From Candidatus Fervidifonticultor quintus (GTDB taxonomy: Bacteria > Sysuimicrobiota > Sysuimicrobiia > Sysuimicrobiales > Humicultoraceae), in assembly GCA_031459535.1 (NCBI GenBank), contig JAVKIJ010000063.1:1-18887 (forward strand): a stretch of DNA of 18,887 nucleotides, written 5' to 3'. Below are positions 1 through 18,614 of the stretch, piece by piece; the stretch's first letter is position 1, and each line of letters starts with the position of its first letter. A program made the translations under genes and the position numbers. The notes under the pieces were generated by a model. It searched no databases, was not told where the DNA came from, and worked only from the letters and a program-made list of their open reading frames with translations.

Positions 1-239
1 CAGCTCTCGGCCAGAGACGGTGCGATCTTCCCGTCGTGGGTGCGCTTCACCAGTTGTTCATAGACGAAGCCGGCCACGAAGCTGGTCGGCGCTTCCTGGA
101 TGCGGATGGGATCGAGGACCGTGAGGTCGGCCTCATTGGCGATCACCAGTTCCTGGGCCGCCGGCGCAGACGAGACCGCACCGCCGCTCGCCAGCAGCGC
201 CGCCACCACCAGTACCACCACCAACCATGCCTGGGGCAT
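1..239 (-). CDS. ABC transporter substrate-binding protein, family 5 (OppA/DppA-like); N-terminal part, runs off the window
   Basis: Not in the ORF track. Manual translation: MPQAWLVVVLVVAALLASGGAVSSAPAAQELVIANEADLTVLDPIRIQEAPTSFVAGFVYEQLVKRTHDGKIAPSLAES. It has a signal peptide and LDP...VYEQLV...I-x-P-x-LAES, typical of SBP family 5. RBS GGAGGTGA lies upstream. Confidence 0.85.
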   Translation of the reverse strand, partial: MPQAWLVVVLVVAALLASGGAVSSAPAAQELVIANEADLTVLDPIRIQEAPTSFVAGFVYEQLVKRTHDGKIAPSLAES

Positions 240-312
240 GGCGCTCACCTCCAGAGACCCCCGTGGTCATTTCACGCTGAATACCACCGCGCGTCAAGCG
301 CTGTAGGGCTAC

Positions 313-341
313 TTGCACAGGTCAGGGTGAGGCGCTACTCT
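313..341 (+). promoter_or_regulatory. Putative sigma70-type promoter for the cupredoxin gene
   Basis: TTGCAC (313-318), 17-nt spacer, TACTCT (336-341) in the divergent intergenic region. Confidence 0.45.
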
Positions 342-398
342 TGCGGAGGTGGTTCGCCGCTTGCGCGGCACAATACTGTGGGAGGAGGCAGGAGTCGA

Positions 399-878
399 AT
401 GCGCAACGTATGGTTTGTCCTCGCCGTGCTGGTCGTCGCGGCCGTCGCGGCCGGGTGCGGTGGGAGAGGCGGCGAGCAGCCCGCCGCTCAACAGCCGACC
501 CCTGGGGCGTCACCGGCAACCGCCGCATCGCCCCAACCCGCGGCGTCACCGGCGGCAGCCGCGTCACCCGCTGCGCCGGGGCGCGGGGTCGAGGGTGGGG
601 AGGTCGTCATCGTGATGAAGGACAATCTCTACGAGCCGGCGACCGTCACGATCAAGGCGGGCCAGGAGTATGAGTTCGTCGCCAAGAACGAGGGGACCAC
701 GGTCCACAACCTGATCATCCAGGCGAAGGATCAGGTGGGCCAGGACTTCGCCTCCGACATCGCGGTGAACGCCGGGCAGGACAGCAAGTTCAAAGTCAAA
801 ATCGACAAAGAGGGCACCTACCCCATGGTGTGCACGTATCATCCCGAGATGAAAGGCGAGGTCAAGGTCGTCAGATAG
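399..878 (+). CDS. Cupredoxin (type 1 blue copper) lipoprotein with Pro/Ala-rich tether
   Basis: ATG at 399 after GGAGGAGG/GGAG. Signal peptide MRNVWFVLAVLVVAAVAAG-C ends in a lipobox. C-terminal cupredoxin domain has H (VHNL) and C-T-Y-H-P-E-M copper ligands. The ORF-track start at 36 is a shadow extension. Confidence 0.88.
   Translation: MRNVWFVLAVLVVAAVAAGCGGRGGEQPAAQQPTPGASPATAASPQPAASPAAAASPAAPGRGVEGGEVVIVMKDNLYEPATVTIKAGQEYEFVAKNEGTTVHNLIIQAKDQVGQDFASDIAVNAGQDSKFKVKIDKEGTYPMVCTYHPEMKGEVKVVR
507..578 (+). repeat. Four imperfect 18-nt tandem repeats encoding ASPATA/ASPQPA/ASPAAA/ASPAAP linker
   Basis: Units start at 507, 525, 543 and 561 (GCGTCACCG-like), in frame within the cupredoxin gene. 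Confidence 0.75.
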
Positions 879-905
879 GCTAGCCAGGCCGGACACTGGC
901 ATTCT

Positions 906-948
906 GCCGGCGAGGGGCGGGGGTAGTCCGCCCCTCGCCGGCTTTGCT
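906..948 (+). terminator. Intrinsic terminator after the cupredoxin gene
   Basis: Perfect 15-bp stem GCCGGCGAGGGGCGG (906-920) / CCGCCCCTCGCCGGC (928-942), 7-nt loop, then TTTGCT. Confidence 0.75.
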
Positions 949-1081
949 CCAGACCTTCGGACGTCGGGTGTTCCCCTGATGCCAAATCAGGTCCAGGCTG
1001 GATTGTGGGCGGCAACCCCGAGGGGTACCGTCGGAAACAAGAGTAAACGGGTAAGAATATCCGGATTCTTGAGGACGACCC

Positions 1082-1525
1082 ATGGAGTTGAGCCGAGCCG
1101 CCCAGTTCGCCATCCGCACCGTCGTGGACCTGGCGGCGGTAGGGCCCACCCGGACGGCCGACATCGCCGCTCGCCGTGGCATCCCGCCTGCGCAGGCCGG
1201 AAAGATTGTGCAGCAGCTCGTGCGTGGCAGCATTGTGCGCACCACCCGGGGGGCGGCCGGCGGCGTGCGCCTGGCACGGCCGGCCGAGCGGGTGACGCTG
1301 AAAGAGGTCATCAACGCCGTCGAAGGCCCCCTGGCCGTCTCCCGGTGTATTGTCTACGACGACTGTCCCTGTGTGCAGCCCTGCCCCGTTCGTACAGCCC
1401 TGAGCCGGATTCAGCACGAACTTGAGCGCCTGTTGGACGGCGTGACCGTCGCCGACCTGGCAAGAGACGACAGGCGTCCGCGACGATCGGCCGGTGCGCC
1501 TGACGGAAGCGACATCGACGCATGA
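1082..1525 (+). CDS. Rrf2-family (IscR/NsrR-like) transcriptional regulator, probably Fe-S binding
   Basis: wHTH with RGAAGGVRLARPAERVTLKEVINAVEG signature, Cys cluster C-x5-C-x-C-x3-C, RBS GAGGA. Confidence 0.92.
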   Translation: MELSRAAQFAIRTVVDLAAVGPTRTADIAARRGIPPAQAGKIVQQLVRGSIVRTTRGAAGGVRLARPAERVTLKEVINAVEGPLAVSRCIVYDDCPCVQPCPVRTALSRIQHELERLLDGVTVADLARDDRRPRRSAGAPDGSDIDA

Positions 1526-1538
1526 AGGGAGGACGGAC

Positions 1539-3521
1539 ATGACGCGATTGACGTTGACGCTGACCGCGGTGGTCGTGGCCGCGCTGCTGGTGACCGGCGC
1601 TTATCTGCTCGGGGCCCGCTCGGCCTCCGGGTTGGCGGGACTGGCCGAGGCTGCCCAGATTGCCCAGGCCCGTCAGCTCGGGCCCGACGCCGTGAGCGCA
1701 GCCGTGCGAAGCTTCGTCCCGCCGGGAAAGCAAGACGAGTACCTGATGTTCTCGTCCGGCGGCCACTCGGGCCAGATCCTGGTCATCGGCATCCCGTCCA
1801 TGCGGCTGCTCAAGGTGATCGGCACGTTCTCCACCGAACCGTGGCAGGGATTTGGCTATGGGGCTGACTGGTCTCAGAAGGTGCTGGAAGGCGGCTCCAA
1901 CGGTAGCGCGGCCCCGCTCACATGGGGGGACACCCACCACCCGGCGTTGTCTGAGACCAACGGCGACTATGACGGCCGGTGGGTCTACATCAACGATCGA
2001 GCCAATGGCCGGATCGCCATGGTCGACCTGCGCGACTTCCGCGTCAAGCAGATCGTGAAGATCCCCAACATGATGACCTCGCACGGCGGGGTGTTCGCCA
2101 CGCCCAACACCGATTACGTCCACGTGTCCAGCAAGATCCCCACTGTCTGGGGTGGCGGGTACGCGCCGTTGGAACAGTACAAGGACAGGTACCGAGGCGC
2201 CTCCGCGTGGCTGGCCGTGGACAAGGCGACCGGGCGGATCGACCTCGCCCGATCTTTCCAGATTGAACTGCCCCCGTACAACCAGGACCTGGCTGATGCG
2301 GGCAAGCTGGCCAGCGACGGATGGGGCTTCATCAACTCGTACAACACCGAGATGGCCACCGGCGGCAACATGGAGGGCAAGCCGGCCATCGAGGCCGGGG
2401 CCTCGGCCCGGGACTTCGACTTCCTGCACATCATCAACTGGAAGAAGGCCGAGCAGACACTCGCTGCGGGCAAGTTCGAGATGCGCAACGGGATCAAGGT
2501 CATCCCGCTACAGACGGCGGTGGCGGAGGGCCTGCTGTATTTTGCGCCCGAGCCGCGCAGCCCGCACGGCGTGGACGTGGCGCCCAACGGTCAGTACATC
2601 GTCGTCTCCGGCAAACTGGACCCGCACACCACGGTCTACAGTATCGACAAGATCAAGGCGGCCATCGAGAGGAAGGATTTCGAGGGCACCGATCCCTTCG
2701 GCGTGCCCATCCTCAGGTTCGACGCGGTGGTCGCTGCCCGGGTGGCGGTGGGCAACGGCCCTCTGCACACCCAGTTCGACGATAAGGGCTACGCGTACAC
2801 CAGCCTGTTCGTGGACAGCGCCGTCGCCAAGTGGTCGCTGGGCGAGCCCTACCACAAAGGCGACGCGGCCTGGAAGCTGGTGGACAAAGTCTCGGTGCAC
2901 TACAACATCGGGCACCTCTCGGTTGCCGAGGGCGACACCGTCAGCCCCGACGGCCGGTACCTCGTGGCGCTCAACAAGTGGTCGGTGGACCGCTATCCGG
3001 TCCTGGGCCCGCTGCACCCGCAGAACTTCCAGCTCATCGACCTGACCGGGCCCAAGATGAGGATCGTCTATGACATGCCCATTCCCATCGCCGAGCCGCA
3101 CTACACGCAGATCGTCAAGCTGGACAAGATCAAGGCCTGGCAGGTCTATCCTATGGGTACAGACATCCTGACCATGGAGCGCAGCCCTTATGCTACCGAG
3201 CGCGGCAAGGAGCGCATCGAGCGGAAGGGCAACACGATCGAGGTATGGATGACCGCGGCCCGCAGCAACTTCCGGCCGGACATCGTGCGGGTCAAGAAGG
3301 GCGATGTGGTCGTCCTGCACATCACCAATACCGAGAAGATCCGCGACGCGACCCACGGCTTCGCGATACCGGACTACAACATTCAGATGAGCGTTGATCC
3401 GGGCGAAACCGTCACGGTCAGGTTCGTGGCATCCAAGCCCGGGGCGTTCAGCTACTACTGCACCGAGTTCTGTTCGGCGCTGCACCTGGAGATGCAGGGC
3501 TGGCTGTTGGTGGAGCCCTAA
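1539..3521 (+). CDS. nosZ: Nitrous oxide reductase, clade II (Sec-type), no cytochrome c extension
   Basis: RBS AAGGGAGGA then ATG 1539. Hydrophobic N-terminus has no twin-Arg. Motifs: SGGHSGQ; CuZ His in DTHH, SHGG, SPHG, PLHT, NIGH, EPHY; CuA THGF and YCTEFCSALHLEM at the C-terminus. Confidence 0.98.
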   Translation: MTRLTLTLTAVVVAALLVTGAYLLGARSASGLAGLAEAAQIAQARQLGPDAVSAAVRSFVPPGKQDEYLMFSSGGHSGQILVIGIPSMRLLKVIGTFSTEPWQGFGYGADWSQKVLEGGSNGSAAPLTWGDTHHPALSETNGDYDGRWVYINDRANGRIAMVDLRDFRVKQIVKIPNMMTSHGGVFATPNTDYVHVSSKIPTVWGGGYAPLEQYKDRYRGASAWLAVDKATGRIDLARSFQIELPPYNQDLADAGKLASDGWGFINSYNTEMATGGNMEGKPAIEAGASARDFDFLHIINWKKAEQTLAAGKFEMRNGIKVIPLQTAVAEGLLYFAPEPRSPHGVDVAPNGQYIVVSGKLDPHTTVYSIDKIKAAIERKDFEGTDPFGVPILRFDAVVAARVAVGNGPLHTQFDDKGYAYTSLFVDSAVAKWSLGEPYHKGDAAWKLVDKVSVHYNIGHLSVAEGDTVSPDGRYLVALNKWSVDRYPVLGPLHPQNFQLIDLTGPKMRIVYDMPIPIAEPHYTQIVKLDKIKAWQVYPMGTDILTMERSPYATERGKERIERKGNTIEVWMTAARSNFRPDIVRVKKGDVVVLHITNTEKIRDATHGFAIPDYNIQMSVDPGETVTVRFVASKPGAFSYYCTEFCSALHLEMQGWLLVEP

Positions 3522-3539
3522 TTTAGCCTCCCGCGATGC

Positions 3540-3566
3540 GGGGGAGGGGCTGCTCGACCCTCCCCC
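3540..3566 (+). other. Intergenic stem-loop between nosZ and nosL
   Basis: GGGGGAGGG (3540-3548) pairs with CCCTCCCCC (3558-3566); no U-tract follows. Confidence 0.55.
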
Positions 3567-3579
3567 CGGGGGATGCGCG

Positions 3580-4059
3580 ATGGCAGTCACACGGAGACGG
3601 TTTCTCTACCTGGCGGCCGCCGCAGCCGCGGGGACCGCGGCCGCTCCCGCAGCCTGGGCGCTGCTTGGCCGCGCGCCCGTCGAGGTCGGCCCGCCGACCA
3701 TCCGCTACGGCCGCGACCGGTGCGACGCCTGCGGGATGATCATCAGCGACCCTCGCTACGCAGCTGCGGCGTGGAGCGGCGCGAGCGCTTCCCGCTACGA
3801 CGACATCGGATGCCTGATCGGCCGCATGGGGCAGGCCCTGGCAAGCGGCAAGGCTGCGGCGTACGTCCACGATGCCTCCAGCCAGGAATGGCTGGAAGCC
3901 GAGTCGGCCGTCTTCGTGCGTTCACCGGCGGTCCACACGCCGATGGCATCGGGCATTGCCGCGTACGCCACTGGCGAGGTCGCGGCCCGCGCGCACCCCG
4001 GCGCCGAGCTGCTGACCTTCCAGGCCCTGCTGGGCACGGGAGGCCGGGCGCCGTCATGA
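3580..4059 (+). CDS. nosL: NosL-family copper chaperone with twin-arginine-type leader
   Basis: Start MAVTRRRFL at 3580. Motifs CDACGMII, YDDIGC, W-x-x-A-x-x-A-x-F-V and TPM; lies directly after nosZ. Confidence 0.88.
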   Translation: MAVTRRRFLYLAAAAAAGTAAAPAAWALLGRAPVEVGPPTIRYGRDRCDACGMIISDPRYAAAAWSGASASRYDDIGCLIGRMGQALASGKAAAYVHDASSQEWLEAESAVFVRSPAVHTPMASGIAAYATGEVAARAHPGAELLTFQALLGTGGRAPS

Positions 4060-6026
4060 TGGCTGGCGCGCGCGAGCGGCGCGTCGTGGCCATGGCAGTG
4101 GGGCTGGCGTTCCTCCTGCTCGCGGCCGGCGCGCTGCTGCCGCTGTGGTCGATGACCCTTTACGCACCCCAGTACGTCAACGGCCTCCGGTTGACCATCG
4201 AGGGCCGCGGTGTGCGCGGCGACGTAGACGAGCTCAACGCCCTCAACCACTACATCGGGATGCCCCCCATCCGCCAGGAGGACATTCCCGAGGCGCGGCT
4301 CTTCTACCCGGCAGTGGCGGCGATCGCAGTCGGCCTGCTCCTCGTGCCGTTCATGCCGTGGCGGCCCTTCCGGTGGCTGGTGCTCTTCGGAGCGTGGGCG
4401 CTGCCGCTGGCCTTCCTGGCAGACCTGCAGTGGCGGCTCCACACCTTCGGTCACAGCCTGGACCCCAAGGCCGCCTTCCGGCTGCCGCTGTTCACGCCGA
4501 AGGTGCTCGGCCCCACGGTCGTGATGAACTTCAACGTGATGGCGATACCCGGCGCAGGCCTCCTCCTGCTGCTGCTGAGCGCGCTGGTGGCGACCTTTGG
4601 GCCGCGTCTGGCCAGCCGGGGACTGCACTGGCGCCGCGCCGGGGCGAGCATGGGGCTGGCAGCCACGGCGGCGCTGGTGCTGGCGCCGGCAGCGCCAGCG
4701 TCGACCTTGGCGCGGGTGCCGGTGGCTGGCTTCGACCTGCGGGCCGCCGTTGCGGCTGCCGCGCCGGGTGCGGTCCTCGATGTGCCCCCCGGCCTTTACG
4801 ATGGCCCCCTGGTTTTGACCAGGGCCATCACGCTGCGGGGAGGAGGCCAAGCGGTCATCGACGGCGGCGGCCGCGGCGACGTAGTGGTGATCGCCGGCGA
4901 CGATGTGCACCTGGAGGGCTTCGTCGTCCGCGGCAGCGCCCTGGTGTTCTCCAGGGAAGCGGCGGGCATCGTGGTGCGCGGCGCCCGGGCCGTGGTGCGC
5001 GACAACCGGATCGACGACGTGTTGTTCGGTATCTACCTGGCCGGCGCGCGCGACGCGGTGCTCGAGGGCAACGTTGTGCGCGCCGCCGACCTGCCGGTTG
5101 AACGGCGGGGCCATGCCATCTACCTGTGGCGCGCCCATCGCAACCACCTCCGGGCCAACCACGTGCTCCGCGGCAAGGACGGGATCTACATCTCGTTCTC
5201 GGATGACAATACCGTCGAGGACAACCGGATCAAGGGATGTCGCTACGGCATCCACTACATGTACGCGAACCGTAACACGTTCCGGCGGAATACGTTCGAG
5301 GACAATCTGGTTGGGGCCGCGGTCATGTACTCCACCGACGTGACCCTCGACGGCAACATCTTTGCCGGGAGCCGCTCCTCGGCCGCCGGCACCGGTCTGA
5401 TCTTCAAGGACGCCGACCGGCTGCTCGTACGGTCGAACCGCGTGGTCCGCAACCGCATCGGGATGGAGTTCGACAACACGCCGGCGACCATCGGGAGCTG
5501 GGCACGGGTCGAACGCAACCTGATCGCCTTCAACGAGATTGGCTTCAACCTGATGAGCACGGCGGCGATCACCGCCACGGAGAATGTCATTGTCGAGAAC
5601 CTGCAGGCGGTGCGCTGGCGCGGCGCCGCCACCTCGGGCGGCAACCGGTGGGCTGCAGGCGGCAGGGGCAACTACTGGGGCGACTACGCCGGCTTCGACG
5701 CCACGGGCGACGGGATCGGTGATGTCCCATATCGGAGGACGGACCTCCTGGAGGGTCTGGCCGGCCGGGCGCCTGCGCTGCAGGCGTTCCTGTTCACCCC
5801 CGCGCACCTAGCGCTGGAGGCCGGCGTGCGGCTGGTGCCGCTGGTCCGGGCGGAGCCGGTCGTCGAGGATCCGGCACCCCTGTTGCGTGCCCCTCATGTG
5901 CTGACCGGTAGCGGCCCGGAGAAGGCCGCCACCACGGGCGTCGACCTGTTCGTGACCGGGCTGGGGATGCTGGTGCCCGGGGTTGCGGGTCTGGTGGGGT
6001 TGCGGCTCTGGAGGCGCCGGCCGTGA
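4056..6026 (+). CDS. nosD: Fusion of NosB-like membrane protein (N-terminal) and NosD maturation protein (C-terminal, beta-helix)
   Basis: ATGA overlap with the nosL stop. N-terminal part has PLW..TLYAPQY..GL, ELNALNHYIGM and FGHSLDP plus 4 TM segments (clade II NosB-like). C-terminal part has GHAIYLW, DGIYISFS, RYGIHYMY and GNYWGDYAGFDATGDGIGDVPY (NosD), then a C-terminal TM segment. Confidence 0.9.
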   Translation: MMAGARERRVVAMAVGLAFLLLAAGALLPLWSMTLYAPQYVNGLRLTIEGRGVRGDVDELNALNHYIGMPPIRQEDIPEARLFYPAVAAIAVGLLLVPFMPWRPFRWLVLFGAWALPLAFLADLQWRLHTFGHSLDPKAAFRLPLFTPKVLGPTVVMNFNVMAIPGAGLLLLLLSALVATFGPRLASRGLHWRRAGASMGLAATAALVLAPAAPASTLARVPVAGFDLRAAVAAAAPGAVLDVPPGLYDGPLVLTRAITLRGGGQAVIDGGGRGDVVVIAGDDVHLEGFVVRGSALVFSREAAGIVVRGARAVVRDNRIDDVLFGIYLAGARDAVLEGNVVRAADLPVERRGHAIYLWRAHRNHLRANHVLRGKDGIYISFSDDNTVEDNRIKGCRYGIHYMYANRNTFRRNTFEDNLVGAAVMYSTDVTLDGNIFAGSRSSAAGTGLIFKDADRLLVRSNRVVRNRIGMEFDNTPATIGSWARVERNLIAFNEIGFNLMSTAAITATENVIVENLQAVRWRGAATSGGNRWAAGGRGNYWGDYAGFDATGDGIGDVPYRRTDLLEGLAGRAPALQAFLFTPAHLALEAGVRLVPLVRAEPVVEDPAPLLRAPHVLTGSGPEKAATTGVDLFVTGLGMLVPGVAGLVGLRLWRRRP

Positions 6027-6922
6027 TCGCCATCACCAACCTAGGAAAGCGGTTCGGCGCCTTCGTGGCGCTGGACGGCATCACCACCGCGATTGGCCGG
6101 GGCGCATTCACCCTGGTGCTCGGCGCCAACGGCGCGGGCAAGACCACCCTGTTGCGGTGCGTTCTGGGCTTGGCTGCCTTCGACGGTACCGTGACCGTGG
6201 GCGGCTACGACGTCTCCGCCGATGGCTCGGCCGCCCGGTCGCTGGTGGGCTATGTGCCCCAGCGTCCGGCGCTGCCGCCGGACCTGAGCTGCCTCGATGT
6301 CCTCGATCTGTTCGCCCGCCTGCGTGGGCGGCGCTCCGGTGACCCCGCGTGGCTGGAGAGGGTGGGGCTGGCCGCCGAAGCGTCCGCGCCCGTGCGCGCC
6401 CTGTCGGGCGGCATGCGCCAGCGCCTCGCACTGGCGGTGGCGTTGCAGGCGGATCCGCCGGTCCTCGTGTTCGATGAGCCCGCCGCGCACCTGGACGGCG
6501 CGTCGCGCCGGGCGCTCCATCGAGATCTCGCGGAACTGGCCCGTGGCGGCCGGACCGTGGTGCTGGCGACGCACCTGGCCGCGGAGCCGCTCCAGGTGGC
6601 CACGCAGGCGCTCGTCCTGCACCGCGGGCGCCTGATTTATGATGGTCCCGCAGACCGGCTGGGAGAAGCCGTCCAGCAACGGGTCGTGTTTGCGATGAAC
6701 GGCGTGGGTCGGGAACCCCTGCGGACGGCCCTGGCCAGCATGCCCGATGTACACGTGAGTGAAACGCCGGATGCGATTATCGCGACGACACCGGCTGGAG
6801 GAGCCTTTGCGCTCCTGGCGGCGGTCGCCGCCGCGGGCGTGCGGCCGTTCGAGGTCCACGTGGAGGAACCCATGGTGGATCCCGCGCGGCTCGTCCGGGC
6901 CAACGGGGAGACCAGGCGATGA
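6023..6922 (+). CDS. nosF: ABC ATPase NosF
   Basis: Walker A GANGAGKTT, signature LSGGMRQR, Walker B VLVFDEP, H-loop; GTGA overlap with nosD. Confidence 0.92.
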   Translation: MIAITNLGKRFGAFVALDGITTAIGRGAFTLVLGANGAGKTTLLRCVLGLAAFDGTVTVGGYDVSADGSAARSLVGYVPQRPALPPDLSCLDVLDLFARLRGRRSGDPAWLERVGLAAEASAPVRALSGGMRQRLALAVALQADPPVLVFDEPAAHLDGASRRALHRDLAELARGGRTVVLATHLAAEPLQVATQALVLHRGRLIYDGPADRLGEAVQQRVVFAMNGVGREPLRTALASMPDVHVSETPDAIIATTPAGGAFALLAAVAAAGVRPFEVHVEEPMVDPARLVRANGETRR

Positions 6923-7749
6923 GGACCTTGGGCGTCCTGGTCGGGCACGAACTCCGTGAAGCCGTCCGACACCGGTGGTTGGTGGGGTACGGTGTGCTGT
7001 TCGCCGCTCTGGCCCTGGGGCTCGCCCTGATCGGCCCGCGGATCTCTGGCGCCGTGGGGCTCGAAGGCTACGGTCGCACCACGGCCAGCCTTCTCAACCT
7101 CTGCCTGACCCTGGTGCCGCTGATTGCCCTGCTGTTGGGCAGTGTGGGACTCTCGGGCGACCGGGAAACCGGCGTGCTCGAGCTGTTCCTGGCGCAGCCG
7201 GCCAGCCGCGCGCAGTTGCTCATCGGGCGTTTCGCAGGCTCGCTGGCCGCCATCGGGCTCGCCACGCTGCTCGGGTTCGGGATTGCCGGCGCGCTGATCG
7301 GCCTGGCCACCGGGGCCGCCGGCGGCCTGCAGTACGCGGCGTTCTTGGGCATCGCGCTCGCCCTGGCCGCGGTCTTCCTCGCCATCGGGAGCGCCATCGC
7401 CGTCATGTCGCGCAACCGTGTGCAGGCCATCGCGCTCGCCCTCGCCGCCTGGTTTGCCGCGGTCGTCGTCTTCGATCTGGCGCTGATTGCTGCGGGAGCC
7501 CTGGTCGGCGCCGGGGTGGGGGCGCTCGCCGCCGCGGTGCTGCTGAATCCCGTCGAAGTCGCGCGGATCCTGGCGCTGCTGCTGCTCGATCCGGGCCTGG
7601 AGGTTCTCGGCCCGGTAGGTGGATTCCTGGTGGCGCGGTTGGGAACCGCCGGGACCGCCGCCCTGCTGATGACCGCCCTGGCCGCCTGGGTGACCGCACC
7701 GCTGCTCGCCGCGCTGGCGCTGTTTGAGACCCGCGATCCTCTGACCTAG
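6919..7749 (+). CDS. nosY: ABC permease NosY
   Basis: Multi-TM protein with RTTASLLNL..LVPLIALLLG, DRETGVLELFLAQP and LLNPVE motifs; ATGA overlap with nosF. Confidence 0.9.
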   Translation: MRTLGVLVGHELREAVRHRWLVGYGVLFAALALGLALIGPRISGAVGLEGYGRTTASLLNLCLTLVPLIALLLGSVGLSGDRETGVLELFLAQPASRAQLLIGRFAGSLAAIGLATLLGFGIAGALIGLATGAAGGLQYAAFLGIALALAAVFLAIGSAIAVMSRNRVQAIALALAAWFAAVVVFDLALIAAGALVGAGVGALAAAVLLNPVEVARILALLLLDPGLEVLGPVGGFLVARLGTAGTAALLMTALAAWVTAPLLAALALFETRDPLT

Positions 7750-7805
7750 CCCCGCGTCCGGCGGGTCGCGTCCGTTGCCACCCGGAGCACGCCGCAGACG
7801 GACCG

Positions 7806-7834
7806 TTGTCGGTCCGGCCCGCACGGCCTAGAAT
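7806..7834 (+). promoter_or_regulatory. Putative sigma70-type promoter of the usp-dsbA-vkor block
   Basis: TTGTCG (7806-7811), 17-nt spacer, TAGAAT (7829-7834); strong RBS AGGAGGTGA at 7851-7859. Confidence 0.6.
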
Positions 7835-7863
7835 GAGGGCGCCACAGCAAAGGAGGTGAGCTC

Positions 7864-8319
7864 GTGCCACCACAGATCTCGACGATCCTGGTCCCGGTGG
7901 ACTTCTCGGCGGGATCCGAGGCCGCGGTGGAGTGGGCGCAAGCGCTGGCTACCGCGTTCGGCGCGCAGCTGGTGCTGTTGCACGTGATCGACACTTCGGC
8001 CAACGCCCTGATCGGCGGGCCCGGCGGCGTCCTGGCGCCTCCTCCGCCGGCGGCGCTCTATGACGAGCTGCGCGAGGAGGCCCGCACCGCCATGGCCGCG
8101 CTCGCTGCCCGCGTGCCGGGCGCCTCAGCCCTGATTCGCGAGGGATCACCCCGTCACGAGATCCTGGCGACTGCTGCTGGCGTGAAGGCCGATCTCATCG
8201 TGATGGGGACCCACGGTCGCACCGGGCTCGCGCACCTCCTCTTCGGCAGCGTGGCCGAACACATCGTACGTCACGCGCCGGTCCCGGTCTTCACCATTCG
8301 CCGTCGGGACGCCGTATGA
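7864..8319 (+). CDS. Universal stress protein (UspA family)
   Basis: ILVPVDFS, LLHV, DLIVMGTHGRTGLAHLLFGSVAEHIVRHAPVPV (ATP-binding G-2x-G-9x-GS motif); GTG start with strong RBS. Confidence 0.95.
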   Translation: MPPQISTILVPVDFSAGSEAAVEWAQALATAFGAQLVLLHVIDTSANALIGGPGGVLAPPPPAALYDELREEARTAMAALAARVPGASALIREGSPRHEILATAAGVKADLIVMGTHGRTGLAHLLFGSVAEHIVRHAPVPVFTIRRRDAV

Positions 8320-8990
8320 GCCCCTCGCCCAGGAAGCGGCAGATTCGCCCCAGAAGGGCCCCGGTCATCGCCGTGGTGCTGCTCGCTGCCGCCGCGGCTG
8401 CGGTGGCCGCCGTCGTCCACTTCACGACCGCGAAGCCTGCGCCGCCCGCCCTGGACGCCGCGCTGGCGCCCGCCGAGCCCGGCGGCAAGTCACGCGGCCG
8501 GCCCGATGCGCCCGTGGTCGTGGAGATCTTTTCGGATTTCCTGTGCATCCACTGTGCAGACTTCGCCAACAGCACCGAGCGGGCCCTGGTCGCAGAGTTC
8601 GTCGAACCCGGCGTCGTCAGGCTGATCTACAGGCAGTTCCCGGTGATCTCCCAGTTGTCCGTGAGCATCGCCGAAGCCAGCGAGTGCGCCGCAGACCAGA
8701 AGCGCTTCTGGGCGTTCCACGACGCTGTCTACGTCCGGGTCCAGCGCGGCGCCATGCGCCGGGCCGCCGACATCGACAGTGCCGCCCGCGAGGCCCGGTT
8801 GGACCTGGCGGCCCTGGCCACGTGCCGCCAGGGGGGCCGCATGCGGTCCCGCGTCGAAGCCGACTTCAACGACGGGGCGTCCCGCGGCGTCCAGGCCACC
8901 CCGACGTTCTTCATCAACGGCCGGCAGGTCGTGGGCAACCAGCCCCTCGACGTCTTCCGCGCTGAGATCAATGCCGCCCGGAAGCGCTGA
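8316..8990 (+). CDS. dsbA: Membrane-anchored DsbA/BdbD-like thiol-disulfide oxidoreductase
   Basis: N-terminal TM segment, GRPDAPVVVEIFSDFLCIHC (CxxC), GVQATPTFFING cis-Pro loop; ATGA overlap with usp. Confidence 0.88.
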   Translation: MSPSPRKRQIRPRRAPVIAVVLLAAAAAAVAAVVHFTTAKPAPPALDAALAPAEPGGKSRGRPDAPVVVEIFSDFLCIHCADFANSTERALVAEFVEPGVVRLIYRQFPVISQLSVSIAEASECAADQKRFWAFHDAVYVRVQRGAMRRAADIDSAAREARLDLAALATCRQGGRMRSRVEADFNDGASRGVQATPTFFINGRQVVGNQPLDVFRAEINAARKR

Positions 8991-9438
8991 GCGGGTCACC
9001 GCCGCCCGCCCAAGGGCCCTCTCGCGGCGGTGGGTCTGGCCGGCACTGGTCGGCGCGGCGCTGGTGGGCGTTGGCATCTGCGGCTATCTCACCGCGACGA
9101 CGCTGGCGGGGGCGGCGCCGGTCTGCGTGGCCGGCGACTGCGCCACGGTGGCATCGAGCCCGTACGCCAAGTTCCTCGGCGTCCCCACGGCGACGTGGGG
9201 ACTCGCGGCGTACGGGGCCATGGGCGCGCTGTCCGCGGCGGTGGCGTGGGGCCGGGCCGCCCCGCCGTGGCTTCCCCATGCAGTGCTGGGTCTGGCGATG
9301 TTCGGCGTGGTCTTCTCGGCGTACCTGCTGTGGGTTCAGCTCGCGGTGCTCCGCGCGGTCTGCTCGTGGTGCGCCGCCAGCGACGTGCTGTGGGTGATCC
9401 TGTTGGCTCTGGCTGGCGTCGGGGTGCTGGCCGAGTAG
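8971..9438 (+). CDS. Vitamin K epoxide reductase (VKOR) family protein, DsbB-equivalent
   Basis: TM protein with loop Cys pair VCVAGDCATV, SPYAKFLGVP and active-site CSWC. Start is uncertain (in-frame ATG 8971 overlaps the dsbA end). Confidence 0.88.
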   Translation: MPPGSAERVTAARPRALSRRWVWPALVGAALVGVGICGYLTATTLAGAAPVCVAGDCATVASSPYAKFLGVPTATWGLAAYGAMGALSAAVAWGRAAPPWLPHAVLGLAMFGVVFSAYLLWVQLAVLRAVCSWCAASDVLWVILLALAGVGVLAE

Positions 9439-9537
9439 CGCCGCAGCGCTGGGCAAAATCCGTTCCGTACCCGATGGCGCCCCAGACGGCGTCACCTACC
9501 CTGGAGGCGACGGGCACACCGTGGGGGTGAGTGGCCG

Positions 9538-10041
9538 GTGAGCGCAACCAAGGACTCCCTGACGCGGGACTACAAGCGCGAGCACGATCAGCTCGACGCA
9601 GGGCTGGCGGCGATGACCGAGACCATGGATCGCCTGCAGCGTCAGGTTGAGTCGTCTCAAATTGGGGCGCTCAGCCAGACCCGGCAGTTCCTGCAGCAGG
9701 TCTTCGTGCCCCATGCCGAGTGGGAGGAACTGACGTTCTATCCCGCGCTGGGGGAGCTGGTGCGCAAGCACGGCGATCCCAACGCGCCCATGTTCATCGA
9801 CCACCGGGAGATCATGGGGCGGGTCCAGGCGTTCGTGGCGCTGGCCAGCCGCATCGAGGCCGGCGAGCGCGATCCGGCCACAATCGACCGGGCGCGGATT
9901 CTCGCCTACCAGATTGCGGCCCTGGTGGAAGCGCACGAGCGCAAGGAGGAGGAGGTCTACCTGGCGCTCCTGGAGCGTCACCTCTCCGACCGCGAGGTGG
10001 TCCACGTCCTCACCGTGGGCGACCAGCTCGGCCACGACTAG
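9538..10041 (+). CDS. Hemerythrin-like (HHE) di-iron protein
   Basis: Ligand pattern EH...HAEWEE..FYP...DH...HERKEE. Confidence 0.88.
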   Translation: MSATKDSLTRDYKREHDQLDAGLAAMTETMDRLQRQVESSQIGALSQTRQFLQQVFVPHAEWEELTFYPALGELVRKHGDPNAPMFIDHREIMGRVQAFVALASRIEAGERDPATIDRARILAYQIAALVEAHERKEEEVYLALLERHLSDREVVHVLTVGDQLGHD

Positions 10042-10055
10042 GATGGATCACGCCG

Positions 10056-10772
10056 ATGCTGGTGCGCGACCGCATGTCCAGTCCGGCCATCGTGATCGAC
10101 GTCGACGCGTCCATCGCCGAGGCGCACACGCTCATGCGCCAGCACGATATTCGGCGGCTGCCGGTGCTCAAGCGCGGACGGCTGGCGGGTATCGTGACCT
10201 GGACCGACCTCATGCGTGCTGAACCGTCCCCTGCTTCCACGTTGAGCGCGTTTGAGGTGCCGTCGCTGCTCAGGTCGGCGCGGGTTGGCGAGATCATGAC
10301 CCCCGAGCCGATCACGATCGGACCCGATGCCCCCATCGAGGCTGCCGCGGTGATCATGCGGCGTGAGAAGATCGGGGGCCTCCCGGTGACCCAGGGTCAG
10401 ACCCTGCTGGGCGTGGTGACCGAGAGCGACATCTTCGAGGCGTTCATTGACCTCACCGGGCTGCGCAGGGGAGGGGCGCGGCTGGTGGTGGATCTGTCCG
10501 GACGGACGAACCCGATCGCGGGCATCGCGGCCATCGTCGAGGCCAGTGGGGTGGCCCTGACATCGCTGGCGACGTACCAGCAGGAAGGTCGCCAGCTAGC
10601 CGTGGTGCGAGTGGACGCGCCCTACCCGCTACACGTGGTGCAGGCGCTGAGCGACGGAGGCTTTGCGGTGCTGCACCTGGCGGCCGCGCCCGAGGCTGCG
10701 GACGACGCGCGAGGCAGCCGACGGCCGTACGAGGAGTACACGAAGGCCTGGGTCACGGAGCGGCAGCACTAG
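10056..10772 (+). CDS. CBS-pair plus ACT-like domain protein (AcuB-like)
   Basis: Start MLVRDRMS. Motifs IRRLPV..GRLAGIVT..DL and KIGGLPV...LLGVVTESDIFEAFIDLTG, then a C-terminal ACT-like alpha/beta domain. Confidence 0.85.
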   Translation: MLVRDRMSSPAIVIDVDASIAEAHTLMRQHDIRRLPVLKRGRLAGIVTWTDLMRAEPSPASTLSAFEVPSLLRSARVGEIMTPEPITIGPDAPIEAAAVIMRREKIGGLPVTQGQTLLGVVTESDIFEAFIDLTGLRRGGARLVVDLSGRTNPIAGIAAIVEASGVALTSLATYQQEGRQLAVVRVDAPYPLHVVQALSDGGFAVLHLAAAPEAADDARGSRRPYEEYTKAWVTERQH

Positions 10773-10792
10773 GCCGGGCCCACGACAACCAA

Positions 10793-10874
10793 TCCTGGCG
10801 ACGGTGGTGGCGCAGACCCTCCTCACCCCCCGTCGGACAACCGATGCGGAGACTGCGCCGTCGCCTCGCCAGGA
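10793..10874 (+). other. Long structured intergenic element (candidate ncRNA or 3'UTR structure)
   Basis: 10793-10801 pairs with 10866-10874, and 10803-10815 pairs with 10853-10865 (three G-U pairs). Inner hairpin at 10831-10846; CU-rich segment at 10817-10830. Confidence 0.45.
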
Positions 10875-10878
10875 AAGT

Positions 10879-10906
10879 CCAGCGACCGCCGCCCGGCGGT
10901 CGCTGG
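10879..10906. terminator. Hairpin between convergent genes, probable bidirectional terminator
   Basis: Perfect 12-bp stem CCAGCGACCGCC / GGCGGTCGCTGG, followed by TGTT on + and ACTTT on -. Confidence 0.6.
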
Positions 10907-10928
10907 TGTTCCTCGGGGTCGAGCAGGG

Positions 10929-11312
10929 TTAGCGTGATCGGGGCTGGAGCGGACAGAGGACGCCGGAGAAGGACCGGTTCCTGGCCCACGCCTCCCAGGC
11001 CTCGTCACCCAGTGCGGCCCGCATGGCGGCTGAGACCAATCGTTCCCCCGGCGCCGCATCGTGCGCGGTGAACAGCAGCAGCAGATGACAGGGGAACTCG
11101 GGACAGACCCCGCAGTGCTCCACCCCACGCTGCCGGGCGCAGGCGTAGACCGGGCAGATGTTGCGCAGCTCGACCTCCTCCTGCCGTGAGCACGACGGGA
11201 CGTGTTCCTCAAACCAGGCATCGCCCTCGAAGCGCGCGCCGCAGATGCCGGCGAACCGGCGACCGCCGAGTTCGCGCTCGGCGCGGCGGATGGCCTCCTC
11301 AGCGGTAGACAT
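10929..11312 (-). CDS. Cys-rich small protein, DUF3795-like
   Basis: Start MSTAEE after RBS AAGGGGGG; CPVYAC..RGVEHCGVCPEFPC motif; 8 Cys in total. Confidence 0.7.
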   Translation of the reverse strand: MSTAEEAIRRAERELGGRRFAGICGARFEGDAWFEEHVPSCSRQEEVELRNICPVYACARQRGVEHCGVCPEFPCHLLLLFTAHDAAPGERLVSAAMRAALGDEAWEAWARNRSFSGVLCPLQPRSR

Positions 11313-11418
11313 GCGAATCCCCCCTTGGTCACACCGTATGGCGGTCGCCGGCTGGTGTCCATCGAGTCCCGAGAGTATGTCCACGGTTGGGACGATGTGT
11401 CATACTGGCGATGCAACC

Positions 11419-11652
11419 ATGTGTCTCGCGGTACCGTACCGCCTGGTGGAGATCCGCGGCCCGGGGCGCGCGTTGGCCGAAGGGCCCGATGGCGTGCGCG
11501 AGATCTCCACGGAGCTGCTCGACGCGCCGGCCCCCGGCACGTATGTGCTCGTGGCCTACGGCGCCGCGGTCCGCGAGATCGACCCCGCCGATGCCGCACA
11601 GTTGCGCGGGCTCCTGGCGGCCATGCAGGCGGCGTCTGAGGATCTGCCCTGA
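11419..11652 (+). CDS. hypC: HypC/HybG/HupF-family hydrogenase chaperone, atypical (no conserved His)
   Basis: N-terminal MCLAVP and PGTYVLVAYGAAVREID; 77 aa; in hydrogenase context. Confidence 0.82.
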   Translation: MCLAVPYRLVEIRGPGRALAEGPDGVREISTELLDAPAPGTYVLVAYGAAVREIDPADAAQLRGLLAAMQAASEDLP

Positions 11653-11657
11653 GTACC

Positions 11658-11678
11658 GCCCGCGCCGCCGGCGCGGGC
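11658..11678 (+). other. GC hairpin downstream of hypC
   Basis: GCCCGCGCC (11658-11666) / GGCGCGGGC (11670-11678); no U-tract follows. Confidence 0.4.
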
Positions 11679-11793
11679 ACCGCCCCGGTCCTTCCCCCTA
11701 GGCGCTGACCCGGAGACCCACCTACGGCGGAATCCACTGTAGGACCGATGGTGGCTCGCAGGCCCAGACGGTATCGTGGCAATGGAGGACGCT

Positions 11794-12576
11794 GTGGCGC
11801 AGCAGCATCAGTCTCTTGTCGCCCCACCCGTAGATCGGACAGCGGTGCGCGATTCATCGCTGGACGGGATGCGCCTGTTTGCCCGGTTCGCGTTCCCACC
11901 TAATCGCCTGGGGTACTGCGGGGCCGACGTCAACACCGAGATCCTTGGCTACCTCCAATCCGGCACGGCCGACGAAGGGCTGCGGCGTCACCTGCGGACT
12001 TTTGCTGCGGCCTATCCGTACCTGGAGCTGATCGCCCGGTGCAATGGCATTGCCGATCCGTTCGACGTTCGGGTCGTGGAGGCGTACTGGATCGGGAACG
12101 CGTTGCTGGAGCGTGTGGACTGGGCCCGCTACGCTCGGGACCTGCACGAGCGGTTTCGAGGGCGTGCCTCGCCCGCGACCATGGAACTGTTGGTGGGCAA
12201 GCCGCCGGCCGGCGCGCGGGCCCACCACGCCTTCCACGTGTTCGACGTCTCCCGGCGCCTGGGGCTGCCGCACGGCGATCTGGCCCTGGATCTGTGCCGC
12301 ATCGCATGGGGGACGATCACCGCCGTCGAGCCCGGGGCCTTCGTGGTGTCCTACCGGCCCATCGTCATCCAGGCCGGCCGGCTCGCATTTGGCGATCCTC
12401 GGCCGGAGCGGGTGCTGCGGGCGCTGGAGGTGGATCCCGACCTGGACGGCGCCGCGCCCGGTGATGTGCTGGCTTTCCACTGGCGGTGGGCCGCCGTCCG
12501 CTTGCGGCCCGATCAGGTGGCCGCCCTGGAGCGGTATACGCGCGGCATGATGGCGCTGGCCAATCAGACGTTCTGA
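11794..12576 (+). CDS. DUF6390-like uncharacterised protein in the hydrogenase maturation cluster
   Basis: GTG 11794 after GGAGGA (alternative start 11776). Motifs PPNRLGYCG, YPYLELIA, VVEAYWIGN, HHAFHV, CRIAWG and FHW. Family name is from memory. Confidence 0.7.
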   Translation: MAQQHQSLVAPPVDRTAVRDSSLDGMRLFARFAFPPNRLGYCGADVNTEILGYLQSGTADEGLRRHLRTFAAAYPYLELIARCNGIADPFDVRVVEAYWIGNALLERVDWARYARDLHERFRGRASPATMELLVGKPPAGARAHHAFHVFDVSRRLGLPHGDLALDLCRIAWGTITAVEPGAFVVSYRPIVIQAGRLAFGDPRPERVLRALEVDPDLDGAAPGDVLAFHWRWAAVRLRPDQVAALERYTRGMMALANQTF

Positions 12577-12586
12577 ACGAACTGCG

Positions 12587-12832
12587 ATGCACGAGGTGGC
12601 GGTGGCGGAGGCACTGTTGCAGCAGGCGGCGGAGGCGGCCGAGCGCGCCGGGTTGACCGTGGTGCAGAACGTGGGAGTCTGCGTGGGCGAGCTCAGCGGC
12701 GTCGCCCCCCAGGCACTGGCGTTCGCATTCGAGATCCTGCGCAGTGGTCCCATGCTGGGAGGGGCGTCGCTCCAGATCCGCGCGACGGCCGGCGACGACC
12801 TGCACCTGGAGTGGGTCGAGGGGGAGTCGTGA
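12587..12832 (+). CDS. hypA: Hydrogenase nickel chaperone HypA, short form lacking the Zn-finger
   Basis: N-terminal MHE, VGELSGV...ALAFAF, GASLQI and C-terminal GDDLHLEWVE; only 81 aa, no CxxC. Confidence 0.85.
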   Translation: MHEVAVAEALLQQAAEAAERAGLTVVQNVGVCVGELSGVAPQALAFAFEILRSGPMLGGASLQIRATAGDDLHLEWVEGES

Positions 12833-13500
12833 TGCGAGTCGAGGTCCTCGAGCGCGTCCTGCGGGCCAATGACGCGCTGGCAGCGGAGGTCCGCGCCATG
12901 CTGGACCGGGCCGGAACCGTGGCGATCAACGTCATCGGGTCCCCCGGCAGTGGCAAGACCGCGCTGCTGGAGCAGACGGCGGCCATTCTGCATCCTCGGG
13001 TGCGGCTGGGTGTCATCGAGGGCGACATCGCCACCACCCGGGACGCCGAGCGTATCGCCCGGTGCGGTGTGCCGGCGGTGCAGATAGAGACCCGGCTGGT
13101 GGGCAACGCGTGCCATCTGGACGCCAACCTGGTTCGGTCGGCCTTGCAGCGGCTGCGGCTTCCAGAGATCCAGGTGCTGTTCGTGGAGAACGTCGGCAAC
13201 CTGGTCTGCCCGTCGGCGTACGATCTGGGAGAGCACTTGCGCGTGGTGGTGGCCAGCGTGCCCGAAGGCGATGACAAGCCGCGCAAGTACCCCGCCACCT
13301 TCGCACGGGCCTCGGCGGTGGTGCTGAACAAGGTGGACCTGTTGCCGGTGACGGACTTCTCACTGGCGGCGTTCACCGAGGGCCTGCGCGAGGTGGCAAC
13401 CGCGCCGCTCTTCCCGCTCTCGGCGCGCACGGGTGAGGGGCTGGGCACCTGGATCGCCTGGGTTGAGGCCCAGCGCGAGGTGATGCAGAGGGTGGGATGA
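12832..13500 (+). CDS. hypB: Hydrogenase nickel-insertion GTPase HypB
   Basis: TGATG overlap with hypA; GSPGSGKT, ACHLDA, ENVGNLVCP, EGDDKPRKYP, NKVD. Confidence 0.96.
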   Translation: MRVEVLERVLRANDALAAEVRAMLDRAGTVAINVIGSPGSGKTALLEQTAAILHPRVRLGVIEGDIATTRDAERIARCGVPAVQIETRLVGNACHLDANLVRSALQRLRLPEIQVLFVENVGNLVCPSAYDLGEHLRVVVASVPEGDDKPRKYPATFARASAVVLNKVDLLPVTDFSLAAFTEGLREVATAPLFPLSARTGEGLGTWIAWVEAQREVMQRVG

Positions 13501-13991
13501 GCATGACTGGCGAGACCGGAGGAAACGTGGTCCTCGACGCGCTGCGCACAAGCCCCCTGTTTGGATTCCTGGAGTCTGCGCACCTGGAGAAGCTCGTGGC
13601 CTTCGCCCGCGAGGTGTCCTGGCCGCCAGACCGGGTGATCTTCCGCGAGGGAGAACCGGATGACAAGCTCTATCTGGTGCTGGAAGGTCTGGTGGCCCTG
13701 GACATCTACGTGCCGGGCCGCGGCCGCGTCACGATTCTGACCATCGGCCCGCAGGAGGTCCTGGGGTGGTCGGCGGCGGTGCCGGAGGTGGAGAAGAAGA
13801 CCGCCAGCGCCCGCACCCTGCAGCCCACGCGCGCCATCGCCATAGACGCCTCAGCGCTCCATGCGGCCTGCGAGCAGGATCACGATCTCGGCTATCACGT
13901 CTACCGGACGCTGGCCAACGTGATTGCCAGCCGCCTGAAGGCCACGCGCCTGCAGCTGCTGGACGTGTACGGGGTCAGCGAGAGGACGTGA
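13497..13991 (+). CDS. Stand-alone cyclic-nucleotide-binding-fold (Crp effector-like) protein, no HTH
   Basis: IFREGEPDDKLYLVLEGLV, GPQEVLGWS, TASART; 164 aa; ATGA overlap with hypB. Confidence 0.88.
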   Translation: MSMTGETGGNVVLDALRTSPLFGFLESAHLEKLVAFAREVSWPPDRVIFREGEPDDKLYLVLEGLVALDIYVPGRGRVTILTIGPQEVLGWSAAVPEVEKKTASARTLQPTRAIAIDASALHAACEQDHDLGYHVYRTLANVIASRLKATRLQLLDVYGVSERT

Positions 13992-13999
13992 GGGAATCG

Positions 14000-18103: not shown

Positions 18104-18110
18104 GGCTGCC

Positions 18111-18614
18111 ATGGGCGCCACAGCCCCCGCCGTCCTCATCATCGGCGTGGGAAACGACGATCGGGGAGACGATGCTGCGGGACTGCTGGCGGCACGGCGG
18201 GTCCGGGCCCAGCTCGCTGCGCGCCCGGCGTCTGGCGCCGGGGTGGCCGTGGTCGAGTGCACCCGTGATCCGACCACCCTCACGGAGGTGTGGGAAGGCG
18301 CAGGGCTGGTCTTCCTGCTGGACGCTGTCCAGTCCGGCGCCCCCCCGGGCACGATCCGGCGCTTCGAGGCGGGCACGGAGCCGCTGGTGGTGGGACGGGG
18401 GCGCGGTTCCACCCATGCCCTCGGCGTGGCCGAGGCTGTTGAGCTTGCCCGGGCCCTCGGCCGGCTCCCGCCCCGGCTGATTGTCTACGGGATCGAAGCC
18501 ACAACCTTCGTTCCGGGTACGCGACCCACGCCCGCCGTCGACGAGGCGGCGTCGGAGGTCGCCGGCCGCGTCCTCGGCGAGATCCCCCACGAGCTGATCA
18601 CCCCAGGAGCCTAG
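18111..18614 (+). CDS. Hydrogenase maturation endopeptidase
   Basis: IIGVGNDDRGDDAAG, LLDAV, STHALG, VYGIE; directly follows the large subunit. Confidence 0.93.
   Translation: MGATAPAVLIIGVGNDDRGDDAAGLLAARRVRAQLAARPASGAGVAVVECTRDPTTLTEVWEGAGLVFLLDAVQSGAPPGTIRRFEAGTEPLVVGRGRGSTHALGVAEAVELARALGRLPPRLIVYGIEATTFVPGTRPTPAVDEAASEVAGRVLGEIPHELITPGA

Follow-up and report, generated by a model that had tools for sequence, protein, structure and literature searches.

An inherited NosB-NosD fusion in the clade II nitrous oxide reductase cluster of Candidatus Fervidifonticultor quintus and its possible bearing on the role of NosB

Organisms with a clade II nitrous oxide reductase (NosZ) are counted as major sinks for nitrous oxide (N2O), a greenhouse gas, and nosB is their signature accessory gene. 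NosB was essential in the only organism examined, and its function is still described as unknown in papers of 2024-2026. It is described as a polytopic protein that spans the membrane with 4 (or 6) helices (bioRxiv 10.1101/2024.05.17.594689). In Wolinella succinogenes, as described in papers citing Hein, Witt and Simon (2017), NosB is a polytopic protein of four helices that is encoded beside nosZ and nosD and carries the motifs LNHYIGM and (Y/F)GH(N/S). PMC9697520 gives the conserved stretches as LNHYIGM and YGHN; there, the NosB and NosB-NosL proteins of Flavobacterium were recognized by these motifs together with 40-46% identity to Gemmatimonas NosB, and the NosB-NosL fusion already prompted an idea of copper management. 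Two fusions of NosB have been described, one to the copper chaperone NosL (Dyadobacter fermentans and Flavobacterium azooxidireducens; PMC9697520) and one to NosC2 (Sulfurimonas denitrificans, ABB45043.1; PMC11409646). No open paper on a fusion of NosB to NosD was found in our literature search; Hein et al. (2017) and Hein and Simon (2019) may mention it.

Here we describe such a fusion in an 18,887-nt stretch of DNA from Candidatus Fervidifonticultor quintus (contig JAVKIJ010000063.1, positions 1 to 18,887), referred to below as the window. The window contains a clade II nos cluster in which nosB and nosD form one gene for a 656-residue protein. As in the NosB-NosL proteins, NosB stands at the N-terminus of a copper-maturation protein; the partner here, however, is NosD, and NosL is a separate protein with a twin-arginine (Tat) signal encoded just upstream. 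As in NosB-NosC2 of Sulfurimonas, NosB provides a periplasmic Nos protein with its N-terminal membrane part, although the partner in that case is a monohaem cytochrome c. The module shares with W. succinogenes NosB the four helices, the two motifs and the position beside nosZ and nosD, but it forms the N-terminal third of a NosD protein, and its cluster lacks the partners NosG, NosH, NosC1 and NosC2. A preliminary description had read the frame at 4056-6026 as a four-helix NosB-like region followed by a signal-like segment, a complete NosD and a C-terminal transmembrane helix. The translation is free of stops over this whole length, and hydropathy together with a full-model match to TIGR04247 confirmed each of the parts, the signal-like segment being located at residues 192-215.

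The fused frame was found to recur in the relatives of the source organism. Among 41 related genomes searched, the window's own included, 21 gave a match. Ten (G000-G005, G009, G011, G012, G020) encode NosB and NosD in one stop-free frame at 62-68% identity; these open reading frames (ORFs) are 645-679 residues long and each ends in a stop codon. G000-G005 are all six genomes of the window's genus, so that the fusion occurs in five of its five other members, and the fused frame spans four genera of the family, i.e., the window's genus and three further ones. In eight more distant genomes of the same order (G007, G026, G028, G030, G031, G033, G036, G039) two adjacent matches each were obtained, consistent with split genes; at L012, the split locus that was checked in detail, a stop codon and a different frame lie at the joint, and its NosB was placed in a different NosB clade. 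Matches were interrupted by contig ends in G019 and G023, and G021 gave a weak match only. The preliminary description had considered that close relatives might encode separate genes, and this applies to the eight distant genomes of the order but not to the nearest relatives. It had also considered an error at the junction, which the relatives' fused frames and indel-free contigs exclude as a slip of assembly: Logan contigs, produced by another assembler from three DNA runs, bridge positions 4497-5060/5100 with 0 differences and no indels. These runs may come from the source sample, so that they rule out an assembly slip and do not provide independent biological support. Short contigs at 4058-4246 and 4934-5100 were also present in an RNA run (X4); since DNA may be carried over into RNA libraries, they do not demonstrate transcription. 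Finally, 51 fused proteins aligned through the joint. We regard a real, inherited NosB-NosD fusion as close to certain. Two of the fused genes, G012:C1:798363-800330 and G020:C3:3145-5112 (L010 and L009; one genus), carry ~21 extra residues, inserted between query residues 71 and 72 in the first periplasmic loop.

Pfam and NCBIfam contained no family for the NosB part of the window's protein, and no consistent family was found among 56 standalone relatives. The identity of this part was established by family search and by motifs. Residues 1-195, used in a phmmer search against 1.84 billion representatives, retrieved 761 proteins at E<=0.001, 378 of them at E<=1e-10. An alignment of 56 standalone members revealed four motif blocks, LPxW...L.APQYP.GL, E(I)N.LNHYIGM, W(L)Y.(F/Y)GH.LDP.AP and PFTP...G. 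The window's protein has an exact LNHYIGM and, at the second site, FGHS, in which G132 and H133 are kept. Across 156 rows of NosB domains, N64 was conserved in 152, H65 in 148, G68 in 153 and M69 in 136, with Y66 conserved as well; in the second motif the counts were 148 for G132, 115 for H133 and 140 for P137. Four hydropathy peaks and four long helices in the AlphaFold2 (AF2) model agree with a four-helix protein. The family also includes the NosB-NosL ORFs of Flavobacterium (L085, L089) and NosB-like genes of Gemmatimonadota, and the NosB-NosC2 reference of Sulfurimonas, as given in PMC11409646, shows the same motif series. The exact LNHYIGM, the FGHS and the 761-member family bear out the earlier assignment of the N-terminal part to NosB.

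When modeled alone by AF2, the NosB module reached a predicted local distance difference test score (pLDDT) of 96.7 and a predicted template modelling score (pTM) of 0.89. The model consists of four long helices, a five-stranded sheet contributed by both periplasmic loops (strands 31-55 and 152-165) and a short helix that ends in LNHYIGM. Residues conserved across the 156 rows were P29, W31, A37, Q39, Y40, P41 (V in the window), G43, L44, G55, L63, N64, H65, Y66, G68, M69, E79, G132, P137, A139, P148, G152 and F159, and on the secondary-structure map they sit at the helix ends that face the periplasm, or close to them. H65 (148/156) and H133 (115/156) are the only conserved histidines, both at helix ends. 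No cysteine is conserved, 66 of the 156 domains having none at all, and CxxCH was found in 0 of the 150 closest NosB representatives; the sequence thus shows no hint of haem or iron-sulfur binding, and NosB is probably not a redox protein. The top 11 rows of a VIA-align search were of the claudin/TARP/DUOXA fold, with Z scores of 9.1-10.4, below the tool's decisive level for helical bundles, and root-mean-square deviations of 4.7-5.7 over 133-163 residues at 7-10% identity. The best Foldseek match was claudin-19 (E 1.5e-3, TM 0.44), and no PDB entry matched at E<=0.001. NosB thus resembles claudin-type tetraspans (claudins, TARP gamma subunits, MP20, DUOXA1) in having four helices and an extracytoplasmic sheet from loops 1 and 2; those families are eukaryotic, and the likeness is one of architecture only, below the level that would show kinship.

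The remainder of the protein is a NosD. TIGR04247 matched with 352.5 bits (cutoff 300) over model positions 1-377 of 377, PF05048 with 136 bits (cutoff 23.6; 1.6e-39), and Beta_helix also matched. PDB entry 7o0y_A, the NosD of Pseudomonas stutzeri NosDFY, matched residues 243-614 at E 7e-41, and AF2 placed short strands only over residues 240-522 at pLDDT 95-98, both in keeping with a right-handed beta-helix. The alignment with the P. stutzeri protein (7o0y and 15 further entries) includes the C-terminal D-x-x-P-L stretch, and in both organisms nosD is followed by nosF and nosY. P. stutzeri NosD (436 residues) differs in lacking a NosB module, and it ends 12 residues past the alignment, so that it has no C-terminal membrane helix either. 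It belongs to a clade I system.

Kyte-Doolittle hydropathy (19-residue windows) peaked in the NosB module at 10-28 (2.64), 82-100 (2.22), 107-125 (1.53) and 161-179 (2.39), and beyond it at the joint (201-219, 1.59) and at the C-terminal helix (631-649, 2.00); the product is predicted to be a six-span membrane protein. The N-terminus, the loop 102-107, the linker 183-199 (four K/R and zero D/E) and the C-terminal tail, i.e., all of the short loops assigned to the cytoplasm, are net positive. Because of this, the standard positive-inside reading would place both long loops (29-81 and 126-160) and residues 216-630 in the periplasm, as the preliminary description had expected for NosD. The AF2 model of the full-length protein had a pTM of 0.75, with pLDDT 95-98 over most of the NosD part; at the joint a helix (193-208) is followed by residues of pLDDT <50 (209-219). 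By inspection, the joint has the layout of a cleavable signal, i.e., an n-region WRRAGAS, a 12-residue h-region MGLAATAALVLA and a c-region PAAPA ahead of ST, in which positions -3 and -1 hold small residues. Each of the 51 fused proteins in the alignment has the order fourth transmembrane helix, basic linker, hydrophobic segment, small residues, variable linker and NosD start (D-L-x-x-x-I-x-x-A-x-P-G...). The hydrophobic segment at the joint has a Kyte-Doolittle value of >=1.3 in 49 of them, and 36 have a C-terminal anchor-like segment. A separate start of NosD at M199 was considered and rejected: this methionine is not conserved in the fused relatives, and the product would lack a charged n-region. 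Many homologs have His-rich or His/Met-rich stretches (HHHH, HDHGGHDH) between the signal-like segment and the NosD fold (P0005, P0006, P0007, P0011, P0017, P0023, P0028), as do the NosD N-termini of L021 and L023; these look like metal-binding tails, and the window's protein has none.

To describe how widespread the architecture is, we used the best 150 of the 761 representative clusters that match residues 1-195; 86 of these were shorter than 300 residues, and Pfam was run on the 64 longer ones. NosD was present in 42 of the best 150, all among the 64 long representatives, and NosL in ten of the 64. Twelve of the 64 had no Pfam match at 1e-5; by eye, three of the twelve are truncated NosB-NosD proteins and three are NosB-NosL. 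Eight of the 42 NosB-NosD representatives add a NosF ATPase domain, and one of these, P0114, also the NosY permease; this 1290-residue NosB-D-F-Y chain has 11 cluster members from separate assemblies. Single chains with NosB, NosD, NosF and NosY in gene order were P0114, L037:2091-5909 and L086:3998-7693. Tandem NosB domains were seen in P0033, P0041, P0034, P0063 and P0065, P0034 being a NosB-NosB-NosD-NosF chain of 1149 residues. In the databases the fused proteins are labeled 'nitrous oxidase accessory protein' or 'copper chaperone NosL' and the standalone ones 'hypothetical protein'. In the ESM Atlas, a 675-residue 'NosD' cluster and a 316-residue 'NosL' cluster have N-termini that match the NosB fold.

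A species scan with one genome per species matched >600 stretches, and the counts given here cover the best 80 loci. Fourteen of these 80 encode NosB and NosD in one frame, so that the fusion is not singular in either survey. The 14 loci bear six phylum labels (Sysuimicrobiota, Actinomycetota, Acidobacteriota, Chloroflexota, Armatimonadota and Candidatus Sulfomarinibacteraceae) and are distributed over Ca. Fervidifonticultor (2), Acidimicrobiia/Iamiaceae (3), Acidobacteriota (3), Chloroflexota lineages (4, one of 1232 residues), Ca. Sulfomarinibacteraceae (1) and Armatimonadota (1, of 1273 residues). Bacteroidota NosB-NosL ORFs in the species loci were ~335-350 residues long. In 76 of the best 80 loci nosD lies after nosB in the same orientation, and in the other four it lies 3.6-4 kb upstream. 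At L030:3791-5800, from a metagenome-assembled genome labeled Polynucleobacter, NosB heads a frame of ~605-670 residues that has no NosD match, and NosD is encoded 3.6 kb upstream. The fused state requires five changes on a tree of 89 NosB domains, built after removal of two duplicate loci and of one locus that has no NosB; at least three of these changes are forced by well-supported branches. The window falls in a clade of ten fused sequences with 99% support, nested in a larger clade in which 19 of 22 rows are fused. Taken as a whole, the fusion gene is ordinary within its lineage, and its proteins are plentiful in databases under the name NosD. Because NosB has no Pfam or NCBIfam model, the fused proteins are named only NosD or NosL, and surveys for a separate nosB will score such genomes as lacking it. 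NosB fusions to NosL (PMC9697520) and NosC2 (PMC11409646) are already on record; the NosB-NosD architecture is informative on the open question of NosB and is missed by current annotation.

The best explanation as a whole, and one that we consider probable though well short of assured, is an inherited fusion in which NosB is a subunit of the NosDFY(L) machine for copper-centre assembly. This assignment is proposed because NosB is fused to NosD, to NosD-NosF(-NosY) and to NosL, because nosB and nosD are adjacent, because NosGH and NosC are absent here, and because NosB has no redox motifs. In such an arrangement, the former signal peptide would restart export after the fourth helix, so that NosD would come to lie in the periplasm beside NosY and NosL, and the C-terminal helix would return the chain to the cytoplasm just before nosF. 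NosB would belong, as a membrane subunit, to the NosDFY(L) machinery by which the CuZ centre of NosZ is assembled, most likely in the role of a docking scaffold or of a putative site of copper hand-over at the periplasmic membrane face (W31, Q39-Y40, N64-H65-Y66, M69, E79, G132-H133). That NosB works in maturation with NosDFY(L) is a view toward which we lean only slightly. More tentatively, and with rather less confidence than we place in a maturation role as such, we propose that NosB is a claudin-like tetraspan whose periplasmic-face residues W31, H65, M69, E79 and H133 either relay Cu(I) from NosL to NosD or keep NosD on NosY; a nosB mutant would then lose N2O respiration through a defect of CuZ maturation and not of electron transfer. 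The recurrent fusions to NosD, NosD-NosF-NosY and NosL make the assignment to the assembly machine concrete and testable and, if it is true, the natural NosB-D-F-Y chains would be ready-made samples for the structure of the whole machine.

Several points weigh against this assignment. PMC11409646 and PMC11539149 present a working model in which NosB acts with NosC2 in electron transfer, and the NosB-NosC2 fusion of Sulfurimonas (PMC11409646) joins NosB to a cytochrome c. Nothing in the analysis shows a contact of NosB with NosD, NosY or NosL; a complex prediction of NosD (residues 216-656) with NosB (residues 1-190) gave no verdict and counts neither for nor against binding. H133 is not invariant, the claudin-like fold carries no functional information, and the joint segment was modeled at low confidence (pLDDT 45-55). 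Adjacent genes of compatible topology can, moreover, fuse without functional meaning, and nosB and nosD are adjacent in 76 of the best 80 loci. Because the NosB-NosC2 fusion exists and an electron-transfer model stands in the literature, NosB may also serve proteins that act on NosZ as a general platform in the membrane. The preliminary description had taken the fusion as Rosetta-stone evidence for a partnership of NosB with NosDFY. That case is strengthened by the recurrence of the fusion and by the NosB-D-F, NosB-D-F-Y and NosB-NosL chains, but it is still to be read as a suggestion, since adjacency eases fusion and NosB-NosC2 is known.

The alternative that fares best concerns the fate of the chain. 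The internal segment is the former signal peptide of NosD, because at two split loci of Dehalococcoidia a single stop codon separates nosB from nosD in one frame (TAG plus 15 nt at L020, 2296-2316; TGA followed directly, with 0 nt between, by a TTG start at L025, 2064-2069), because their NosD begins with an ordinary signal peptide, and because their sister L065 is fused by read-through. The loss of one stop codon is thus sufficient to fuse the two genes. A hydrophobic segment must stay between NosB and NosD, as the former ends on the cytoplasmic side and the latter acts in the periplasm. The product may be a polyprotein, in which signal peptidase I would cut after the c-region (~A-P-A, residues 213-215) to yield NosB with five spans and, anchored by its C-terminal helix, the mature NosD. 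The segment has the geometry of a signal peptide rather than of a membrane span, with the short h-region MGLAATAALVLA and a proline-containing c-region that ends in small residues; the AF2 helix covers 193-208 only, with pLDDT <50 at 209-219, and the joint hydropathy, 1.59, ranks near the bottom of the set of 51 fused proteins. In many fused homologs, as read by eye, the hydrophobic segment closes with an AxA-like motif (...FPLGVNA/Q, ...AHTAFA/Q, ...PAMEASA/Q), but such motifs arise by chance in alanine-rich, high-GC proteins and do not discriminate, and some joints are long and strongly hydrophobic, like stable spans (L026, 2.84 with 27 uncharged residues; L035, 2.62). Cleavage at an internal signal peptide has been reported for FbcH, the cytochrome b-c1 precursor of Bradyrhizobium japonicum. 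FbcH resembles the window's protein in its layout, in which a polytopic membrane protein leads into an internal signal peptide and then into a C-terminally anchored periplasmic domain; cleavage of the window's protein is putative. We consider a cleaved product conceivable but doubtful. The fusion would in that case serve only co-translation and 1:1 dosing, and this would be compatible with NosB as a partner of NosDFY.

With NosB as a subunit of the assembly machine as the favored explanation, a second and unlikely alternative is that the fusion is neutral, i.e., that NosB delivers electrons to NosZ (the NosGH / NosB-C2 / NosC1 model) and was joined to NosD through adjacency and topology only. 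The adjacency of nosB and nosD in 76 of the best 80 loci, the single stop codon between them in L020 and L025, and the NosB-NosC2 fusions and electron-transfer model in PMC11409646 and PMC11539149 are all what such a history would leave behind. Neutrality is less easily reconciled, however, with a fusion that is kept across four genera at 62-68% identity and that recurs at least three times on the NosB tree, with whole NosB-D-F-Y chains, which demand equal stoichiometry and co-location, or with a second fusion to the copper chaperone NosL. NosB also lacks conserved cysteines and haem motifs, and the window's cluster keeps NosB though it has no NosGH or NosC genes. An artefact, in which an error of sequencing or assembly or a wrong frame merged two separate genes, is hardly credible: the source genome is fragmented (138 contigs, 88.85% complete) and the DNA runs that bridge the joint may be the window's own source, but the same fused frame occurs in nine other genomes, the contigs of another assembler cross the joint with no differences or indels, and 51 fused proteins align through it.

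Table 1. Coordinates of the fused gene, its parts and the surrounding nos genes in the window.
Feature	Residues	Position	Strand	Basis or remark
Cupredoxin-domain protein		36..878	+	PF13473 3e-15, PF00127 4.5e-08; upstream of nosZ
nosZ, clade II (Sec-type) nitrous oxide reductase		1494..3521	+	TIGR04246 816.2 bits (cutoff 625)
NosL-like gene		3580..4059	+	PF05573 24.1 bits (cutoff 24); translation
nosB-nosD fused gene		4056..6026	+	656 residues plus stop, open frame; fused ORFs of 645-679 residues also in L002-L010
NosB module	1-185	4056..4610	+	Hydropathy, AF2, family search
Parts of the NosB module	First transmembrane helix 10-28; periplasmic loop 1 29-81; second helix 82-100; third helix 107-125; periplasmic loop 2 126-160; fourth helix 161-179
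LNHYIGM motif, NosB signature	63-69	4242..4262	+	Exact match to the published motif
FGHSLDP	131-137	4446..4466	+	FGHS (131-134) is the counterpart of the published YGHN
Basic cytoplasmic linker PRLASRGLH after the fourth helix	183-191	4602..4628	+	n-region continues with WRR
Signal-peptide-like segment WRRAGASMGLAATAALVLAPAAPA	192-215	4629..4700	+	Read from sequence, hydropathy
NosD beta-helix	228-611	4737..5888	+	TIGR04247, PF05048, 7o0y_A, AF2
C-terminal anchor helix	631-649	5946..6002	+	Kyte-Doolittle 2.00, AF2 helix 627-653; followed by an RLWRRRP tail with four K/R
nosF (ABC ATPase)		6023..6922	+	PF00005 2.7e-23; start overlaps the nosB-nosD stop
nosY (ABC-2 permease)		6919..7749	+	PF12679 2.1e-19; overlaps the end of nosF

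The clade II nos cluster runs on the + strand in the order cupredoxin, nosZ, nosL, nosB-nosD, nosF and nosY. The NosB module thus lies in a Sec-type nos cluster beside nosZ (TIGR04246, 816 bits) and nosD, and the NosD part is encoded together with the NosF ATPase and the NosY permease. The ATG of the fused gene at 4056 shares the tetranucleotide ATGA with the TGA stop codon of the upstream NosL-like gene. A longer frame that opens at 3573 was rejected as the true start; all of nosL would lie within it in another frame, and the relatives' matches begin at query residues 3-13. For the NosL-like gene, the ATG at 3580 is the most likely start and yields a twin-arginine signal (MAVTRRRFLY...); the protein has a CDACGM motif and no lipobox cysteine near the signal. 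Profile searches of the window's proteins found no NosG, NosH, NosC or NosR gene in the window. The product of 36-878 has 280 residues with the cupredoxin/plastocyanin-like domain at its C-terminus and, because the window has no cytochrome c, NosGH or NosR, it may be an electron donor to NosZ.

Directly after nosY, at 7864-8990 (+), lie genes for a universal stress protein and for a homolog of the Rcas_1661 family of thioredoxin-like (seleno)lipoproteins, the latter matching with 136.9 bits, below the cutoff of 190; the thioredoxin-like protein is a possible thiol-disulfide helper for the copper centres. Hemerythrin and CBS proteins are encoded further downstream. At 12811-18614 (+), genes for a HypB/CobW-type GTPase and a cNMP-binding protein precede a cytoplasmic-type [NiFe]-hydrogenase set that comprises an Fe-S subunit, an FAD/NAD subunit, the small and large subunits and a HycI-like protease.

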